A DNA stretch of 64,000 bases from a virus (IMGVR_UViG_3300029319_000019:16340-80339); one strand, 5' to 3'; shown: positions 16,678 through 24,197, numbered from the stretch's first letter. Numbers and translations: made by a program. Notes: generated from the sequence alone by a model not told the origin.

Positions 16678-17097
16678 TTATTTTTTTTCTGTATCATTTT
16701 TTTTGGAACTACCACCAAAAAAGAAATCAACAATTGTGTTAACTTTTGCACTCATTGCCCCAAAGATAGTGGAAATAAAACTAATTTCAAACTCTCCTAA
16801 GTTAATGTCTCCCAGCACAAAGTGATTAAACATCACAAAACTAATGCCAAAGTATGCAACTGTGAACAAAGTTGCTAACACTTTTTGGATGATAGCATCG
16901 TCCTTATACATGTCTCTTGCAGACTTGCGATCTTCTACTTCTTTAGCAAAAGCTTCGCGCTCTGCTTCTAACATTATCTTTTGTAATTCTATTTTAGCCT
17001 GATCTCTTTCTTTATCAGTTGTAATTACTTTGTCCAATATTCCTTCGGCGTTGTCTAGAACTTTACCAAACAGTCCGCCCATTACTTTTTGTATCAT
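16678..17097 (-). CDS. Holin (3TM / GTA-holin-like)
   Basis: GILDKVITTDKER..AK.EL...D..SAR followed by two hydrophobic helices and ..FFFGGSS. Near the putative endolysin. Confidence 0.7.
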   Translation of the reverse strand: MIQKVMGGLFGKVLDNAEGILDKVITTDKERDQAKIELQKIMLEAEREAFAKEVEDRKSARDMYKDDAIIQKVLATLFTVAYFGISFVMFNHFVLGDINLGEFEISFISTIFGAMSAKVNTIVDFFFGGSSKKNDTEKK

Positions 17098-17560: not shown

Positions 17561-18478
17561 TTAAGATGGTATTAAAGTTTTAATAACCACAGTCATTGAT
17601 ATTTGAATAGTATCACCTGTACTACCATCTCCTCTTATAGCTGGATAAATCATATCACCAGCGCTTAATGTAAAATCTCTACTTAAATCTTCTACCTTAG
17701 CAGCAACATTATTAAAAGTTCCGCCATCTTTGTCAGCTGCAGCGTAAGCTCTTAATGTTGCGTTTATAGAATTTGTAGTGCCCCAATCAGGAACACCCAC
17801 GAACAAACCAGCTGCAAACTGTCTATCACCGTTAGCATTTCTACCAGCTCCGTATATTCCTACTAACTTACCAGCGTAAGGTACCCTAACACCGGCATGT
17901 TGATATTGCTTTGCTACAGATATAGTAGTACTACCAACTGTTGTCGCGTTTTGATTAGAGTCGATAGTCCAAGTATGATTTGATATACCGTTACCACCAG
18001 GAAACTCCCAATCGCCATTAGCTTGAACCGTAGAGTTACCTAAGAAAGATATGTATTGATAATGGTATCTAGCATCAACGTGAGACTTTAAACCTGCCGG
18101 CGTTACTGCTCTAGCCGTATCAGTTCCTGTATCAGCTTCTCCAGTTGTTGCTAACTCAACAATCCCTTTATTAGACGTACTAGCGTCTTCTCCAGCTATA
18201 GTAATAGTTCCAACACCTCCAGAAGTATCTATACCTTCACCGCCAGCTATAGTAAAGTTGGCATCGCCCGACGTCACTTGCGTCGCGTTTAAATCATCTG
18301 CCAAAAGCTGAACGGATGTTATATCGCCAGCTGGAACATTGGCTTTTACTATTTTATTATTAGCATCAAGACCAAGCATACCACCACTAGAAATAGTACC
18401 CGCGCTTACATCTTCTAAGTAAACATCGCTTCTAAATCTAGCAATTAAATCTTGTATGTATTGACCTATAAACTTCAT
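17561..18478 (-). CDS. Tail fibre-like protein, 305 aa
   Basis: Contains the phage fibre repeat ASTSNKGIVELATTGEADTGTDTARAVTPAGLK, with a beta-rich C-terminal domain. Confidence 0.7.
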   Translation of the reverse strand: MKFIGQYIQDLIARFRSDVYLEDVSAGTISSGGMLGLDANNKIVKANVPAGDITSVQLLADDLNATQVTSGDANFTIAGGEGIDTSGGVGTITIAGEDASTSNKGIVELATTGEADTGTDTARAVTPAGLKSHVDARYHYQYISFLGNSTVQANGDWEFPGGNGISNHTWTIDSNQNATTVGSTTISVAKQYQHAGVRVPYAGKLVGIYGAGRNANGDRQFAAGLFVGVPDWGTTNSINATLRAYAAADKDGGTFNNVAAKVEDLSRDFTLSAGDMIYPAIRGDGSTGDTIQISMTVVIKTLIPS

Positions 18479-18945
18479 TAATCAAAATCAATATATTCTA
18501 TTGTTACTTCTTCTCCATTAGCTATTGCCTTTGCAATAGACGGATAAATCCTTTTATAAGCGTTAACGCTTTTACCAACAAACCCGTCAGGTAGTAGTTG
18601 GTTATTTTCCTGTGCATCGCCAACGATAAGACACCCAGCAGTGTGCTCGTCAGTGTTTCCAGTATGAATAAGAATATACTCAAAGTTAGGAACATCAGTG
18701 ACATGCAACATACCACGGTGTATACCAGGATATTTTTTAGTATATCTTTCATGAAATCCACCTTCTTTTCTTAATTCTATTTTATATGTGCCTGCAGGTA
18801 CTCTAGTTTCACCTCTAACTTTTAAAGCTCTACGCTCGTCTTCAAGTGTGTAACAGAGAAATTTATTACCCATATCACCCTCTTCAAATAATAAACCTGA
18901 AGTTGAGTCTGCTTCTGAGCTAAATCTTAATACTTTTAGTTTCAT
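18478..18945 (-). CDS. DUF5675-family L,D-peptidase, probable endolysin
   Basis: CYTLED...GETRVPAGTY...VPNFEYILIHTGNT.EHTAGCLIVG with catalytic His/Cys. Close to the holin. Confidence 0.85.
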   Translation of the reverse strand: MKLKVLRFSSEADSTSGLLFEEGDMGNKFLCYTLEDERRALKVRGETRVPAGTYKIELRKEGGFHERYTKKYPGIHRGMLHVTDVPNFEYILIHTGNTDEHTAGCLIVGDAQENNQLLPDGFVGKSVNAYKRIYPSIAKAIANGEEVTIEYIDFD

Positions 18946-21344
18946 TGTACAATTATTATTGTTGTAAAGTTTACCTTATCTTTAGTAACCTTTAAATAGT
19001 TTATACCTTTTTCTAATTTTATTCTTCTTACATTTTTATAGAAAACATGATCCGTACCTAAGTTGTCTATTACTAATACATCTACCTCTTCTTTAAAGTT
19101 TATGTAATCTTTTGTTGGATTAGGATATGGTATAAGCGCTGATCTTTCATACATTGCAATGTCTGTCGGTCCTGACCAGCCATCTTCACAATATGCGTAT
19201 AATGCGTCACATGTGCCATCCCATGTATCATCACAGCAATAAGGATCTACCTGTATTACCCACTCAAAACAAGCGTTAGGAATATAATATACATCACCAG
19301 AGTTACACCCAGCACTATAATAACACGAACTGTCTGCCACGTTAGCAAGCGGATTGTAATTAATAGCGGTCGCATCAGTGCAGCCAGACAAAGGATAAAT
19401 ACAGCTACCATTATCAGTATTTGCATTATCATCGTAATTAAGTGCTGTGCTGTCGGTACATCCATAATAGTAAGGTATACAGTTTCCATTATCAGTATTA
19501 CAAGTATCGCAATAGTTCCACATAGTTGGATCAATACACCCAAATATTACAGGTATGCAAGATCCATCGTCAGTGTTAGCTAACGCATTATAATTAAAGG
19601 CTGCACCATCAGTACAGCCCCAGATAACGGGTATGCATGAACCATCATCTGTATTCGCTAATATGTCATAGTTAAAAGCTGTACTATCCGTACAACCTAG
19701 TACAACATCTATACATGTACCATCATCAGCATTTGCTAATGGGTTATAGTTTATTGCATCAACATCCATACATCCGTATACAAAAGGAGTACAAGATCCA
19801 TTGTCTGTATTAGCAAGAGGATCAAAATTAAACATTGTACTATCTGTACATCCATATATAAATGGTATGCAACTACCATTGTCTGTGTTTGCTAATGAGT
19901 TATAATTAAACATTGTATTATCTGTGCAACCAAAAATAATTGGAACACATGAGCCGTCATCTGTATTTGCTAACGGATTGTAGTTAAAGGCTGTGACGTC
20001 TAAACAACCTAAAACTACGGGCGTGCACGACCCATCATCCGTGTTTGCTAAGGAATCATAATTAAAAGCTGTTACATCTGTACAACCGTATATATAAGGA
20101 ATACAGCTACCATCGTCTACATTTGCATTAATATTGTAGTTTAACATTGTAGGATCAGTGCATCCTTCTACTACTTCTATACAAGAGCCTGCTATTTCTA
20201 CATTTGCAAGAGAGTCGTAATTTAACGCAGTACTGTCCATACACCCTATCACAACTAAAGTAGCACATGACCCATCATCATAATCATAAGAAGCGTCGTA
20301 TTCTAAATATATAGGATTAGTACATCCTGGATTATAGTAACAACTTCCATCGTCTGTATTTACTGTATCATTATAGTTTACAGCTAAGCTGTCTATACAT
20401 CCGTACGTTCTTTCTATACAAGTATTACCACAATATGGTTGTCCTATAATAGGAAAGAATGGTGGTATAGGATTAACAAAACCACCTTCTATGTCTATTG
20501 CATAATAATCTTCTGAGTATAAAGAATAGCCACATTGTACTGCAGTAAAGTCTGATTGTTGTGTTATTTCAAATATTGCTCTAACAGGATAACCTGCTGC
20601 TAAATTTATAAAGAACGTTGTATCAAAACCATCTACTAAAGTATAAGTTCCAATGTCTTGATAGTTGAATGGCGGTATTAAACTAGTTGCTTGTGCTAAC
20701 TTTAAACTAGATCCAGCCCAACCATTACCAGCTAAATCTGTTAATTCTAACTCATGCATACAGCTATCTATGTTTATATCTGTATTAGCTGAGTCTAAAT
20801 AATTATATGCTAATGAGTCTGTACAACCGTATATTCTTGGTGTAAAGCACATTCCCGTGTCTAATGTAGCTGCTATGTCAAACTCTACATAGCTACTATC
20901 CATACACCCAAATACTGGAGGGGGCGGAGGGCACCCTGACGTATATATTGTATCATACATAAAGCTACCAAAGTCAGCCATAGGCAGCTCCCAAATAGTG
21001 TCGCCACATTGTTCTATATATACAGAACCATCATTACCACCCCATAAACTACCTGCTATACCATCACCGTATGTATCATTGATAACAAAATAAAAACTAT
21101 CAATAGGTGCACAAGCTGCAGCATATTGTGGTTCATAATCTATAATGTTTGTGTATGGCCCACCTTGCATTAGTGTATCACCAAAGAAAGTCATTATATA
21201 CCAAGACGTTTCTTCTGGATATTGATCAGGATTTATAGTAACATTTAAACTCCACGTACCTGGAGGGCATTGTCCAAATGTTGTAGCTACAGTAAATACT
21301 GTAACCATAATTAGTGCATATAATGTTTTTGTAAAATTATTCAT
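18942..21344 (-). CDS. Secreted Cys-repeat protein (about 16 GCxD...DDGSC repeats) with signal peptide and T9SS (Por) C-terminal sorting domain, 800 aa
   Basis: Sec signal ending TTFG|Q. C-terminus has YPNPTKDYINF...VIDNLG...KGINYLKV...TTIIIVQ, the type A CTD pattern. Confidence 0.8.
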   Translation of the reverse strand: MNNFTKTLYALIMVTVFTVATTFGQCPPGTWSLNVTINPDQYPEETSWYIMTFFGDTLMQGGPYTNIIDYEPQYAAACAPIDSFYFVINDTYGDGIAGSLWGGNDGSVYIEQCGDTIWELPMADFGSFMYDTIYTSGCPPPPPVFGCMDSSYVEFDIAATLDTGMCFTPRIYGCTDSLAYNYLDSANTDINIDSCMHELELTDLAGNGWAGSSLKLAQATSLIPPFNYQDIGTYTLVDGFDTTFFINLAAGYPVRAIFEITQQSDFTAVQCGYSLYSEDYYAIDIEGGFVNPIPPFFPIIGQPYCGNTCIERTYGCIDSLAVNYNDTVNTDDGSCYYNPGCTNPIYLEYDASYDYDDGSCATLVVIGCMDSTALNYDSLANVEIAGSCIEVVEGCTDPTMLNYNINANVDDGSCIPYIYGCTDVTAFNYDSLANTDDGSCTPVVLGCLDVTAFNYNPLANTDDGSCVPIIFGCTDNTMFNYNSLANTDNGSCIPFIYGCTDSTMFNFDPLANTDNGSCTPFVYGCMDVDAINYNPLANADDGTCIDVVLGCTDSTAFNYDILANTDDGSCIPVIWGCTDGAAFNYNALANTDDGSCIPVIFGCIDPTMWNYCDTCNTDNGNCIPYYYGCTDSTALNYDDNANTDNGSCIYPLSGCTDATAINYNPLANVADSSCYYSAGCNSGDVYYIPNACFEWVIQVDPYCCDDTWDGTCDALYAYCEDGWSGPTDIAMYERSALIPYPNPTKDYINFKEEVDVLVIDNLGTDHVFYKNVRRIKLEKGINYLKVTKDKVNFTTIIIVQ
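19323..20402 (-). repeat. Tandem array of about 14 coding repeats of ~78 nt (26 aa; GCTDxxAxNYxxxANxDDGSC)
   Basis: Counted directly in the translation of 18942..21344. Confidence 0.9.
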
Positions 21345-21351
21345 TATTATA

Positions 21352-22071
21352 TTATAAAGTTATTCCTACTCTGCTAGCTATATCTTCTCTAACTAGCGTA
21401 GCGTCTGAATCGCTAAGAACTTCGTTATATATAGCAACTTCGTATATTGTTCCATTAAAAGGGTTTGAACCTCCTGTGCCTTGAGAACCCAATACTTCAA
21501 GGTTAAAATCAGACCCAGTACTATTTGCTAAAGCAAAATTGTCAAGGTCAGCGTTTACTCCTATGGTTACAGTGTTATCACCTTCTTGTCTAAACATTAC
21601 TATAAACTTTTCTACTCCTCCATTTCCTTCAAAACTAAAGTCAGTAGAATGACTCACAATAAGGTCAAGTGAGTTATCAGCTCTTTTTGTCCTAAACTCA
21701 TTATCAGCAGTTTGATTTATTCTTATAAAGTCAGCAGCGTTAGAGCTAGATAAAAAAGTCATAGAAGTAGCACTGTCTGGCTCCATAGCAACAAACATAG
21801 TAAACGTAGATGTTGTTATTGTAGATGTTAAATCATAGTGGTCTCCATCATCATGATTAAAGTCAATACCACCATCTTCTACAGTTCCTTGCCTTGAAGA
21901 GGTTGATTGAGCTACGTGATTATCATTACCGCTAGAATCATCCCATTGAGCAGCAGTAACACCTTCTCCATTTTTAAGCCATAGTTGTAAACCGCTAATA
22001 TCAGATAAAGAAAACTCTGACAAAGGTCTATTACCACTAGATGATGTTGTATTTGATATTCCTAATCTCAT
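21352..22071 (-). CDS. LamG / concanavalin-A-like lectin-domain protein
   Basis: LQLWL...QWDDSSGNDNH..Q and FNGTIYEVAIYNEVLSD motifs. Confidence 0.75.
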   Translation of the reverse strand: MRLGISNTTSSSGNRPLSEFSLSDISGLQLWLKNGEGVTAAQWDDSSGNDNHVAQSTSSRQGTVEDGGIDFNHDDGDHYDLTSTITTSTFTMFVAMEPDSATSMTFLSSSNAADFIRINQTADNEFRTKRADNSLDLIVSHSTDFSFEGNGGVEKFIVMFRQEGDNTVTIGVNADLDNFALANSTGSDFNLEVLGSQGTGGSNPFNGTIYEVAIYNEVLSDSDATLVREDIASRVGITL

Positions 22072-22427
22072 TAAAATTTACTCATTATTAGTTCGTCTAT
22101 ATAGTTTTGCACCTCTTTTCTTGTTGCTTGCATAGCAAAACTAAGATCTGCTTGAAATCTTTTTACTTCTTCACCGTCATCAAATATTATAATAGTTGGT
22201 ACTACAGCTATTTGATATTTCTTTTGTAAATCATTATTGTCTATCATATATGATTCTTTATCACAATCTCCTAGTTTGTTAAACCACTCTACACTGTTTT
22301 GTTCATTCCAACTAGCATTAAATTGCATCGCGGTCACCTGAGCTGAGCACGTAACACAAACCAGCAATAATGGCAATACTAGCAAGTATGTCGCAAATGT
22401 TTTCCATATTAAATTTAGTTTTTTCAT
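22071..22427 (-). CDS. Exported thioredoxin-fold protein lacking CxxC
   Basis: Signal peptide ending CSA|Q. FNASWN occupies the F.A.WCxxC site. KYQIAVVPTIIIFDDGEEVKRF is the cis-Pro segment. Confidence 0.75.
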   Translation of the reverse strand: MKKLNLIWKTFATYLLVLPLLLVCVTCSAQVTAMQFNASWNEQNSVEWFNKLGDCDKESYMIDNNDLQKKYQIAVVPTIIIFDDGEEVKRFQADLSFAMQATRKEVQNYIDELIMSKF

Positions 22428-22703
22428 TTATCTTAATTCATCAATCTTATCTTCCATTCTAATCATTCGCTCTTCTAATTTTTTAACATCATCACGTGTT
22501 TCTATGATTGTATTACGAATGTTTATATCCTTCATATCAAATTCCATTTTTGATACTTCAGGTTTTGGAAGCTCTTTTGCTTCTGATATGTCAGCTTGTA
22601 ATGTAAACCACATACCAACAAGAGTAAAAATAAGTGCTGCAATACCTGCTAATGTTTTTATACTTATTTTAAAGCTAGTGTCTTCGTTTAATTCCTTTGC
22701 CAT
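22428..22703 (-). CDS. Single-TM membrane protein with C-terminal coiled coil
   Basis: Likely start MAKELNED at 22703. TM segment LAGIAALIFTLVGMWFTL, then heptads. Confidence 0.65.
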   Translation of the reverse strand: MAKELNEDTSFKISIKTLAGIAALIFTLVGMWFTLQADISEAKELPKPEVSKMEFDMKDINIRNTIIETRDDVKKLEERMIRMEDKIDELR

Positions 22704-22793
22704 TTTATTTTTTACATTTTGCAGAACAGTATCCGTAGCATACTTTTCCAAAAGTTAAAAATTTAATTATATTACATAGTGTCTTTTTCATAT

Positions 22794-23828
22794 CTAAAAT
22801 ATTATATAGTTTATACCTAATTTAAAATCGTACCACTCTTTGTTCCAGTACTTGTTATATTTACCTTCAATAAAGCATCCTAAATTTTTAGTAGCTTTTA
22901 ATCCAAATATTAAACCCCCTGAGTAATCATACCACTGTTCTCCATTATTGAAGTTGTGGTATGAGTATTGTCCGCCATCATCATAGTGATAAGGCATTAG
23001 GTTACCCCAGGAATGTAACCAAAAGTTTTTCTTGTAGTAGTAATAATCAAATCCTACTACTATTGAATATTGCCATTGATTAGCTAGTGCGTTTCTCTTT
23101 TTCTCTACATACTCTTCTAACACCTGTGGTATAACCACCTCATTCCAAACTTCTGCGCTAGTAGCAACAACATTTCCGTTAGGATCACTATACTCAGATT
23201 CATATACATCAACGCTATATCCTTGTTCAATAGCTAGCTGAGTGTAGTGTAAATTACCAGATTGCATTGTCCATTCTTCTAATGGATCATAACCGTATGG
23301 TTCAGCTAATCTAGTAACTCCTCCAAAATTAAACGATAACTTTTTGTTACCTCGTAATCTAAATCTTTGCGTTGCTTCATAGTATTCTATATCTGCAAAC
23401 CCATCTTTAATATACTCTACTTTTGTAAACCAAATAGGTCTTACATATCGTATAAAATGATGTTGATCTAAATACTCTATACCTTCTTGTCTTTTATATT
23501 CTATCTCAAATAGATACTCAAAGGGATTTCTTCCTACACTTGCTGCATCAGAAAAAGATGTTTCTGTACCATCTTTAAACGGTGATGTGCCTTCATATTG
23601 AAACCTTTGTATCTTACGTATGCCCATAGCTAATGAATAGTCATATGGGGTACGTATTGTATCATATACAAGACTACTACCATCTACAGAATATACTTCT
23701 CTATCTGATAGTGATGTGCCGCCATTTGCTGCTACATAGAATGTAGAAAACTTAAAAGCTTTTCTAAACTGTGCAGTTGCAGATAGTGACGCAAAAAGAA
23801 ATACTAATATAAGTACTCTCAATTTCAT
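22794..23828 (-). CDS. Putative outer-membrane beta-barrel protein, 344 aa
   Basis: Signal peptide ending ATA|Q. Alternating aromatic amphipathic strands. C-terminal beta-signal YDFKLGINYIIF ending in Phe. Confidence 0.75.
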   Translation of the reverse strand: MKLRVLILVFLFASLSATAQFRKAFKFSTFYVAANGGTSLSDREVYSVDGSSLVYDTIRTPYDYSLAMGIRKIQRFQYEGTSPFKDGTETSFSDAASVGRNPFEYLFEIEYKRQEGIEYLDQHHFIRYVRPIWFTKVEYIKDGFADIEYYEATQRFRLRGNKKLSFNFGGVTRLAEPYGYDPLEEWTMQSGNLHYTQLAIEQGYSVDVYESEYSDPNGNVVATSAEVWNEVVIPQVLEEYVEKKRNALANQWQYSIVVGFDYYYYKKNFWLHSWGNLMPYHYDDGGQYSYHNFNNGEQWYDYSGGLIFGLKATKNLGCFIEGKYNKYWNKEWYDFKLGINYIIF

Positions 23829-23831
23829 ATA

Positions 23832-24197
23832 CTATGCTTTACTAAACTGTGCGTATTCAAGTACACAAGCAGCAGTGTATGCCTCTGCTTGAACAGTTAG
23901 TCCACTGTACATAGGAACAAATGCAAACTCTCCTACATCTAGTCTTATAACTGCATTACCGCCAAGTTTAATTTGTAAAAAAGAAGCAGCATTGCTAGAT
24001 GAAATATTTTTTATGTATAAATAAGAAAAAGCACTATTACTAGCTAGCACGTCTTGTGCAGATCCAGTTGCTATTGATTTTCTTGATACATTTGTAGTAG
24101 GTTCTCCAACCACTAATACATCTGATACACTTAAATTTAAAACATCGCTTGTAGCAGTGCTACTATTTAACGTTAATTTTGTTGTTAATGTTGCCAT
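23832..24197 (-). CDS. Hypothetical beta-rich structural protein
   Basis: MATLTTKLTL...YLYIKN...L.VGEFAFVP pattern, in the tail region. Confidence 0.5.
   Translation of the reverse strand: MATLTTKLTLNSSTATSDVLNLSVSDVLVVGEPTTNVSRKSIATGSAQDVLASNSAFSYLYIKNISSSNAASFLQIKLGGNAVIRLDVGEFAFVPMYSGLTVQAEAYTAACVLEYAQFSKA

Follow-up and report, generated by a model that had tools for sequence, protein, structure and literature searches.

The stretch of viral DNA analysed here (IMGVR_UViG_3300029319_000019:16340-80339, 64,000 nt, hereafter the window, of which positions 18,479 to 23,828 are shown) carries four closely spaced genes whose products are predicted to enter or cross the envelope of the infected cell: an outer-membrane beta-barrel (BB344, 344 aa), a membrane-anchored coiled coil (TMcc, 91 aa), a thioredoxin fold lacking CxxC (Trx118, 118 aa), and a large, cysteine-rich protein (T9_800, 800 aa, hereafter also the cargo) apparently addressed to the host's type IX secretion system (T9SS). 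The 80.3-kb IMG/VR viral contig from which the window comes has an estimated completeness of 93%, and every gene between about 46 kb and 1 kb is on the minus strand; the module lies inside this string, between tail-fibre-like genes. Its features, in window positions, are as follows:

22794..23828, minus strand: BB344, predicted outer-membrane beta-barrel, with a signal peptide (23772-23828), a C-terminal beta-signal-like strand (22797-22826), and an inserted alpha/beta domain at about residues 176-250
22428..22703, minus strand: TMcc, predicted bitopic membrane protein, delimited by ortholog alignment
22071..22427, minus strand: Trx118, predicted periplasmic thioredoxin fold, with a signal peptide (22341-22427)
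18942..21344, minus strand: T9_800, predicted to be exported by Sec and T9SS, with a signal peptide (21273-21344)
20430-21269, mainly 19305-20402, and 18945-19142, minus strand: heads, Cys repeats, and type A C-terminal domain (CTD) of T9_800, respectively, from a repeat map and alignment

These four genes keep company well beyond the window. Linkage was counted in 46 loci with at least 4.5 kb on either side of the barrel gene, drawn from 80 related viral loci, and TMcc, Trx118, and the cargo gene were found beside the barrel gene in 44 of them; in the remaining two, the cargo gene begins at the edge of the fetched DNA. The first-pass annotation, made from the sequence alone, had named a lack of co-occurrence elsewhere as grounds for giving up its proposed cassette, and for these four genes the proposal held up. 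The order TMcc, Trx118, cargo was constant, with the barrel gene either first or last (two arrangements), and gene presence and order were kept over barrel identities of 56%-100% and contigs of 30-130 kb. Ten of the 13 contigs sharing the capsid protein of this phage carried the barrel, including both that were at least 90% complete, and the three lacking it were 37-48% complete. Within the window, the co-orientation and tight packing claimed for five genes (the four above and a LamG-like gene, LamG239) were borne out, as all open reading frames (ORFs) lie on the minus strand with a spacing of -4 to +42 nt. BB344 (gene span 23828-22794) starts 3 nt past the preceding gene and is separated from TMcc by 42 nt, or by 90 nt when counted to the conserved TMcc ATG at 22703; Trx118 abuts TMcc, LamG239 and Trx118 overlap by 1 nt, 7 nt lie between LamG239 and T9_800, and the following gene, encoding a DUF5675 protein, overlaps the T9_800 gene by 4 nt (ATGA).

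Three of the four products start with a putative signal peptide. Export was scored on the distinct orthologs from the 80 related loci, as a strongly hydrophobic N-terminal segment followed by a small-x-small-Gln site. The hydrophobic segment was present in 71 of 71 BB344, 63 of 63 Trx118, and 54 of 57 T9_800 orthologs, and in none of those of the control genes (LamG, 0/10; DUF5675, 0/25; tail-fibre, 0/18), while the Gln-bearing site was found in 64, 58, and 43 orthologs of the three proteins, respectively. In the window copies, the three Sec signals with Gln already noted in the first reading were recovered as ATA/Q (residue 20, BB344), CSA/Q (residue 30, Trx118), and TFG/Q (residue 25, T9_800). 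The signal sequences drift and yet the feature persists, and it therefore looks like a functional signal peptide. A Gln immediately behind the site of signal-peptidase cleavage is characteristic of Bacteroidota (the "Q-rule"), and the T9SS is confined to this phylum. That a Bacteroidota phage would use host Sec, beta-barrel assembly machinery (BAM), and T9SS is thus a prediction supported by features that many orthologs have kept.

An AlphaFold2 model of BB344, built with an alignment of 39 orthologs, reached a predicted local distance difference test score (pLDDT) of 74 and contained 12-14 long strands, and its leading PDB matches, at Z 10-14, were all outer-membrane barrels, with 12-strand barrels matched at Z 11-14. 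The best was EstA (Z 14.2, root-mean-square deviation 4.7, 197 residues aligned), followed by KdgM (Z 13.3), NanC (13.0), NalP (12.7), LpxR (11.9), Tsx (11.6), and OMPLA (11.5). Together with a C-terminus reading K-x-G-I-N-Y-I-I-F, the model and its matches support the earlier claim of a barrel ending in a BAM beta-signal; the last residue was Phe in 62 of 73 orthologs, Arg in nine, and Leu in two. Residues 72-102 (76-100 in a narrower delimitation) were conserved yet modelled with low confidence, and this loop may serve partner binding. Furthermore, in 26 of 71 orthologs (e.g., L007, L011-L013, L015-L017, L020, L022) the plain signal peptide gives way to a lipobox-like L-x-S-C, behind which comes a conserved P-K-x-C-C-S-Q tether; in the window copy, the site is one for signal peptidase I. 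Because about one third of orthologs carry the lipobox-like site, the barrel probably occurs in plain and lipidated forms. A role as an OMPLA-, LpxR-, or PagL-like enzyme was considered and is unsupported, because neither His nor a Ser-His-Asn set stayed conserved once distant members were added. The residues that did persist in distant members were T29, Y31, G69, K72, E104, R155, G169, Y178, A199, S255, G259, Y263, G305, E321, G338, and N340.

BB344 belongs to no named family. Pfam gave no hits in 39 members, and no NCBIfam or PHROG family was found for the window barrel. An exhaustive profile search of 1.8 billion representatives recovered a compact family of 406 proteins of similar lengths, all with signal peptides, and no link to any named family, and the family comprises more than 3,300 protein clusters at 90% identity. 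Its distribution is viral: barrel clusters in the ESM Atlas were 100% viral, and BFVD held one strong match, a viral protein of the same size (E 1e-22); viral structure libraries also hold phage-borne outer-membrane barrels. Among 185,579 species genomes, five hits were found, all on contigs of metagenome-assembled genomes (MAGs), two in Bacteroidota bins and three in bins that look mis-binned; 400 other Bacteroidota genomes gave no barrel matches. The three contigs in question (L083, L085, and L086) are filed as Parvibaculum, Candidatus Nitrosopelagicus, and Rickettsiales, and are probably mis-binned phage contigs. BB344 is thus a member of a phage-only, orphan outer-membrane barrel family.

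For TMcc, the mechanical ORF begins at a TTG (22751), and nearly all orthologs begin at the Met of MAKELNED (ATG 22703). About 16 residues precede a single transmembrane (TM) helix, followed by the conserved L-Q-A-D-I-A-E-A-K-E-L-P, a Pro-rich spacer whose length varies by up to 17 residues among orthologs, the likewise conserved R-M-E-F-D-M-K-D, and a coiled coil. The protein contains no Cys, and the part predicted to be periplasmic is only about 55 residues long. The hydrophobic segment was present in 48 of 56 orthologs without a cleavage-site pattern. The TM and coiled-coil protein described in the first reading was confirmed from sequence and ortholog alignment. Only weak matches to PHROGs of unassigned function were obtained; Pfam hits of the family were scattered and yielded no reliable family, there was no PDB match, and the ESM Atlas leads (DUF7365, DUF2730) all scored under 0.92. 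Our literature search found no paper mentioning DUF7365.

The family profile of Trx118 recovered thioredoxins exclusively among the 60 PDB matches listed (best E 3e-8), with no specific homology past the thioredoxin superfamily; single-sequence Pfam scores remained under the cut-off. Aligned to 2vim, the family has W-N where the thioredoxin has W-CGPC-R, leaving a gap of five residues; the cis-Pro motif (VVPT) is kept and is invariant, as are the motifs FNAxWNxxN and G-E-E; no conserved Cys pair was found in the mature part of the ortholog alignment. These observations uphold the assignment as a CxxC-less thioredoxin, and Trx118 cannot be a redox enzyme because the CGPC loop is absent. Redox-inactive thioredoxin folds such as the b and b' domains of protein disulfide isomerase offer an analogy for a CxxC-less fold beside a Cys-rich client in an oxidising compartment. 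All 62 distinct Trx118 orthologs end in Phe, an unusual degree of conservation for the final residue of a soluble protein.

Behind its signal peptide, T9_800 opens with a beta-sandwich head (residues 26-138), which a PPPPP linker joins to two Cys repeats; a second sandwich (about residues 196-305), about 14 further repeats, a Cys-rich knot, and the CTD come next. It contains 47 Cys and about 16 Cys-bracketed, acidic 26-aa repeats of the form G-C-T-D-x-x-A-x-N-Y-N-x-x-A-N-x-D-D-G-S-C. The T9SS type A CTD that the first-pass annotation had read at its end was supported in part. The window copy alone stayed below the family cut-off (PF18962, E=0.05, 14.3 bits against 27, a weak match; no TIGR04183 hit); 21 of 32 aligned orthologs match PF18962/TIGR04183 (best E 3e-14), and the window CTD can be aligned to them, with its PNP, GxY, and terminal motifs kept. 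The CTD occurs in two forms, a canonical one of about 75 aa, which includes that of the window, and one shortened to about 45 aa, with L-L-F-Y-I-Y-D-D-G-S-V-E-K-K at its end. No enzyme domain was found by a Pfam scan of the window copy and its orthologs. Ortholog lengths range from 600 to 1134 aa with differing sets of heads, a variability expected for a surface-interaction protein. The model of the heads (pLDDT 76) gave generic matches only, namely to a Ca-dependent carbohydrate-binding module (Z 6.9) and to PLAT/C2-like domains of alpha-toxin and lipoxygenase (Z 6.6-6.7), all of them too low to be telling.

Head domain A of the cargo, marked by T-D-x-Y-x-x-E-T-S-W ... D-x-Y-G-D-G and not covered by any Pfam family, was also found in 22 of 400 cellular Bacteroidota genomes (e.g., L181-L187). 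In the five best cellular frames, as classified with Pfam, it accompanied an M4 peptidase with MAM, an M43 peptidase, and a PNGase F-like protein, these three ending in a type A CTD, as well as a lysyl-oxidase-like and a Sortilin/dockerin-type frame, with no sorting domain seen in the fetched frames of these two. As head A recurs in cellular T9SS cargo, the phage cargo is assembled from modules of the secretome of the host phylum. Pattern and profile searches found the stalk repeat as the sole part of T9_800 elsewhere in the phage genome, in a 1464-aa protein, and a profile search of the genome did not find the head domains in its other genes. Concerted evolution of the repeats of the two proteins was considered and rejected (similarity 0.67 within genomes and 0.65 between them).

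The owner of the module is a marine crAss-like phage clade of Bacteroidota that is abundant and uncultured, with the crAss-like placement resting on the capsid protein. The major capsid protein matches phrog_11589 (E 2e-86), and tblastn gave about 30% identity over 93% of the protein to gut crAss-like, Bacteroides, and Flavobacterium (including psychrophilum) phages. Near-identical DNA was found in marine metagenomes of at least nine studies, and among 50,697 isolated-phage records there was no match to the DNA, BB344, Trx118, or TMcc, with T9_800 matched via its repeat only. Related contigs in two Bacteroidota MAGs accompany six PorP/SprF genes in each, although the binning of phage contigs into MAGs is unreliable. 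Across the whole window, the Bacteroidota-type -7 promoter element TAnnTTTG occurs in 123 copies (82.6 +/- 9.5 expected), a count that no shuffle reached.

Sigma-70-type promoters and terminators in the module were not above chance, and TAnnTTTG was not found in the 42-nt gap. A single transcript shared with the structural genes is therefore the simplest reading, and the module would be expressed with the structural (late) gene string as one transcript. The genes around and within it that bear on its interpretation are these:

21352..22071, minus strand: LamG239, concanavalin/LamG-like protein (PF13385, E 3e-6, 27.7 bits against a cut-off of 27.6)
18478..18945, minus strand: DUF5675 protein (PF18925, E 2e-27), with a weak Tlde1 hit, a YkuD-like H...GC motif, and no signal peptide
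16678..17097, minus strand: holin-like 139-aa membrane protein (phrog_3427 holin, E 2e-4), with a TM segment
26501..30895, minus strand: 1464-aa protein, presumably of the virion, with no signal peptide and only the Cys repeat in common with the cargo

LamG239 had been counted as the fifth gene of the cassette, a claim that we revise. Its LamG assignment stands, marginally, at the Pfam cut-off; it lacks a signal peptide, stands outside the exported set, and is similar to a family of structural virion proteins (phrog_10356, "virion structural protein", E 1e-7). Since LamG occurs in only 12 of the 80 loci, and at three different positions, it is an optional insert rather than a member of the module, separate, cytoplasmic, and probably virion-related. 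The position of the module directly upstream of an endolysin was also supported in part: adjacency to DUF5675 is observed, tail-fibre-like genes also surround the cassette, and DUF5675 is the probable endolysin, translationally coupled to the cargo gene by ATGA. Its homologs are named L,D-carboxypeptidase or peptidoglycan hydrolase in some phage records. The holin-like gene adjoins DUF5675 and, in several related phages, comes directly after the module; in many loci, DUF5675, or a holin-like gene plus DUF5675, lies directly 3' of it. As the first reading had stated, no canonical spanin pair was recognised near the holin-like and DUF5675 genes in a membrane-protein scan of the whole 80-kb genome.

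Further observations concern the surroundings of the module. The early arm, on the plus strand, begins at 47174-47586 with an 81-aa protein that has two TM helices, followed after 2 nt by a 54-aa lipobox protein (47422-47586; lipobox A-L-G-S-C, mature part about 38 aa). The two are among very few other membrane or exported proteins in the 80-kb genome, and may represent a further lysis pair or a lipoprotein for early exclusion. Immediately upstream of the barrel, the gene at window 23832-24197 has relatives of about 120-140 aa that occur in related phages in two to three diverged tandem copies (L016:9924-11192, L045, L062, L071, L075, L078). L016:1-7983 holds a giant ORF, over 2660 aa long and with HExxH, which stops just before the barrel, and the barrel is followed by a 132-aa ORF and then DUF5675.

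Phage T9SS cargo as such is not unprecedented: one case is that of the "Cryophage" (PMC7468147; Bellas et al. 2020), and ORFs with T9SS sorting domains have been described from crAss-like contigs of the gut (PMC6949934; de Jonge et al. 2019). The published cases likewise have a type A domain, vary among related phages, and are presumed to use host secretion. In contrast, they are glycoside hydrolases, PA14, or BACON proteins reported singly, whereas the cargo here has no enzyme domain and keeps the fixed company of a phage-only barrel, TMcc, and a dead thioredoxin fold, with the barrel being core to the clade. Our literature search found no paper on the four-gene module or on the barrel family. 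Overall, phage T9SS cargo is already known, and the four-gene module is, by this search, unreported.

Sequence and model features give good support to where the four products are predicted to reside, and it is their purpose that we infer. Tentatively, and short of an even chance, we favour a function centred on the cargo, in which it is a fibre-like surface protein that the phage plants or releases and that the other three products help or anchor. We prefer a single function of this kind because the cargo is the only large, variable member and the other three always accompany it, and because a holdase and a docking site are plausible needs of a 47-Cys protein that has to fold in the periplasm before the T9SS exports it. 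Mechanistically, Sec would export BB344 and BAM would insert it into the outer membrane as a barrel of 12-14 strands, and TMcc would sit in the inner membrane, reach into the periplasm with its Pro linker and coiled coil, and tether the assembly. The cargo would cross the inner membrane through Sec, fold and form disulfides in the periplasm with Trx118 as a redox-dead holdase, and leave through the host T9SS by means of its type A CTD, so that two beta-sandwich heads would tip a stalk of about 16 repeats at the cell surface. There, BB344 may act as its private outer-membrane anchor or helper, analogous (not homologous) to the partners in PorQ-PorZ and SprF-SprB. Candidate purposes are adhesion of infected cells, surface shielding, and protection of progeny from debris. 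The roles put forward in the first reading (superinfection exclusion, adhesion, grazing defence, and outer-membrane disruption) and its trans-envelope complex are speculative.

In the cellular pairs PorQ-PorZ, PorV-PorU, and SprF-SprB, a barrel of about 320-350 aa is similarly encoded beside a T9SS substrate. By contrast with T9_800, which is type A, these pairs have type B or retained CTDs. Several points weigh against the cargo-centred reading. No sequence or profile homology was found between BB344 and the PorP/SprF family: 39 BB344 members gave no PF11751 hit at E up to 1, and hhalign against eight PorP/SprF proteins returned a probability of 11.6%, with the signal-peptide region alone aligned. 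Type A CTDs are normally cleaved and the cargo is often released in gliding Flavobacteriia, and a private anchor is therefore not required by known biology. The short CTD, which is non-canonical, lacks the PNP half, and may no longer address the T9SS, occurs in at least 13 of about 59 distinct C-termini (3' end of the cargo gene in L047-L049, L052, L053, L062, L064, L065, L068, L071, L073, L079, and L080). The presence of a T9SS in the host is assumed, and contacts among the four proteins are inferred. In a virulent phage, the core status of a gene hints at an essential step more than at an accessory trait of the surface. Finally, two observations point to lysis: many genomes have the module abutting holin-like and DUF5675 genes, and the barrel of L016 lies beside DUF5675 with the other three module genes absent nearby.

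These last observations lead to a second explanation, which we hold to be doubtful, namely that the module substitutes for a spanin: the barrel, TMcc, and Trx118 would form a trans-envelope link, with Trx118 as adaptor, that disrupts the outer membrane after removal of the peptidoglycan by the endolysin, with the cargo as co-factor or passenger. Besides the placement directly upstream of DUF5675 (or of a holin-like gene plus DUF5675 in other phages), the lone barrel of L016, the core status of the barrel, and the lack of a canonical spanin pair near the lysis genes, the topology of TMcc is i-spanin-like (an N-terminal TM segment and a periplasmic coiled coil) with a linker of variable length, and the lipobox-like site of 26 of 71 barrel orthologs is followed by a CC pair. 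Kongari et al. (PMC6139136) list Bacteroides and Croceibacter phages as spanin-less and allow for an outer-membrane protein as o-spanin in such phages. Two-component spanins (lambda Rz/Rz1, T4 PseT.3/PseT.2; PMC6139136) likewise combine an inner-membrane coiled coil with an outer-membrane partner near holin and endolysin. However, the outer-membrane partner here is a large barrel of 320 residues that resembles no o-spanin, rather than the small, Cys-bearing lipoprotein by which o-spanins are recognised; the coiled coil is short and free of Cys, with a periplasmic part of about 55 residues, whereas known i-spanins are longer and mostly disulfide-linked (PMC6139136); and a thioredoxin fold and a cargo are added. 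The constant company of a 600-1100-aa T9SS cargo would be left unexplained, and proximity to lysis genes may simply mirror how the late region is laid out, with tail-fibre genes interspersed. In a bolder version, which we regard as rather improbable, barrel, TMcc, and dead thioredoxin fold would make up a new kind of device, built on an outer-membrane protein, for disrupting the outer membrane; it would be what Bacteroidota phages have in place of the missing spanin, with the T9SS fibre acting from outside or marking the site.

A third explanation, receptor masking or superinfection exclusion, seems unlikely to us. The secreted protein, with or without the barrel, would cover or alter the phage receptor on the cell and on debris, so that later phages would be kept out and progeny would not be wasted on fragments, as with T5 Llp. 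Bellas et al. proposed a similar role for other phage T9SS cargo (PMC7468147). Lambda Lom, T5 Llp, and phage porins show that phage proteins are put in the host outer membrane by host machinery; these are known cellular families or small lipoproteins, mostly temperate-phage or early genes, whereas BB344 has no cellular relatives among the genomes searched and lies in a late string. The cargo is surface-directed and varies between phages, and its stalk repeat is common to a large, signal-less, presumably virion protein. The idea is weakened because its heads are not shared with virion genes, the stalk repeat alone being held in common, and because repeat units within one genome are no better matched than those of different genomes. 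In virulent phages, genes for exclusion are usually early ones, in contrast to the module, and this genome has a separate small lipoprotein in its early arm (47422-47586); PADLOC gave no hits.

That the four genes are unrelated accessory genes, mere neighbours each acting alone, we consider very unlikely. Recombination does separate them, as in L040, where TMcc is 100% and Trx118 97% identical to the window and the barrel just 70%; against this, presence and order persist over the whole range of barrel identities and contig sizes given above. Least credible of all is that they are ordinary virion components or assembly factors that only look exported, as the tail-fibre-like neighbours, the Cys repeat in a cyanophage record annotated as virion structural protein, and the likeness of LamG239 to a virion structural PHROG might suggest, since three of the proteins have kept cleavable signal peptides with a +1 Gln that the true neighbours lack, and a TM barrel and a T9SS domain have no role in a cytoplasmically assembled virion.

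If the cargo-centred reading is right, very abundant marine phages would reprogram the surface of infected Bacteroidota late in infection, via three host export pathways at once, and a surface or egress step would be added to the crAss-like infection cycle. With the module, a phage T9SS substrate would for the first time have a set of helpers dedicated to it, and the module would give a handle on how Bacteroidota phages listed as spanin-less pass the outer membrane. More generally, the T9SS sorting domain and the Gln-after-cleavage rule serve as markers of host phylum for uncultured phages that can be read from sequence only.

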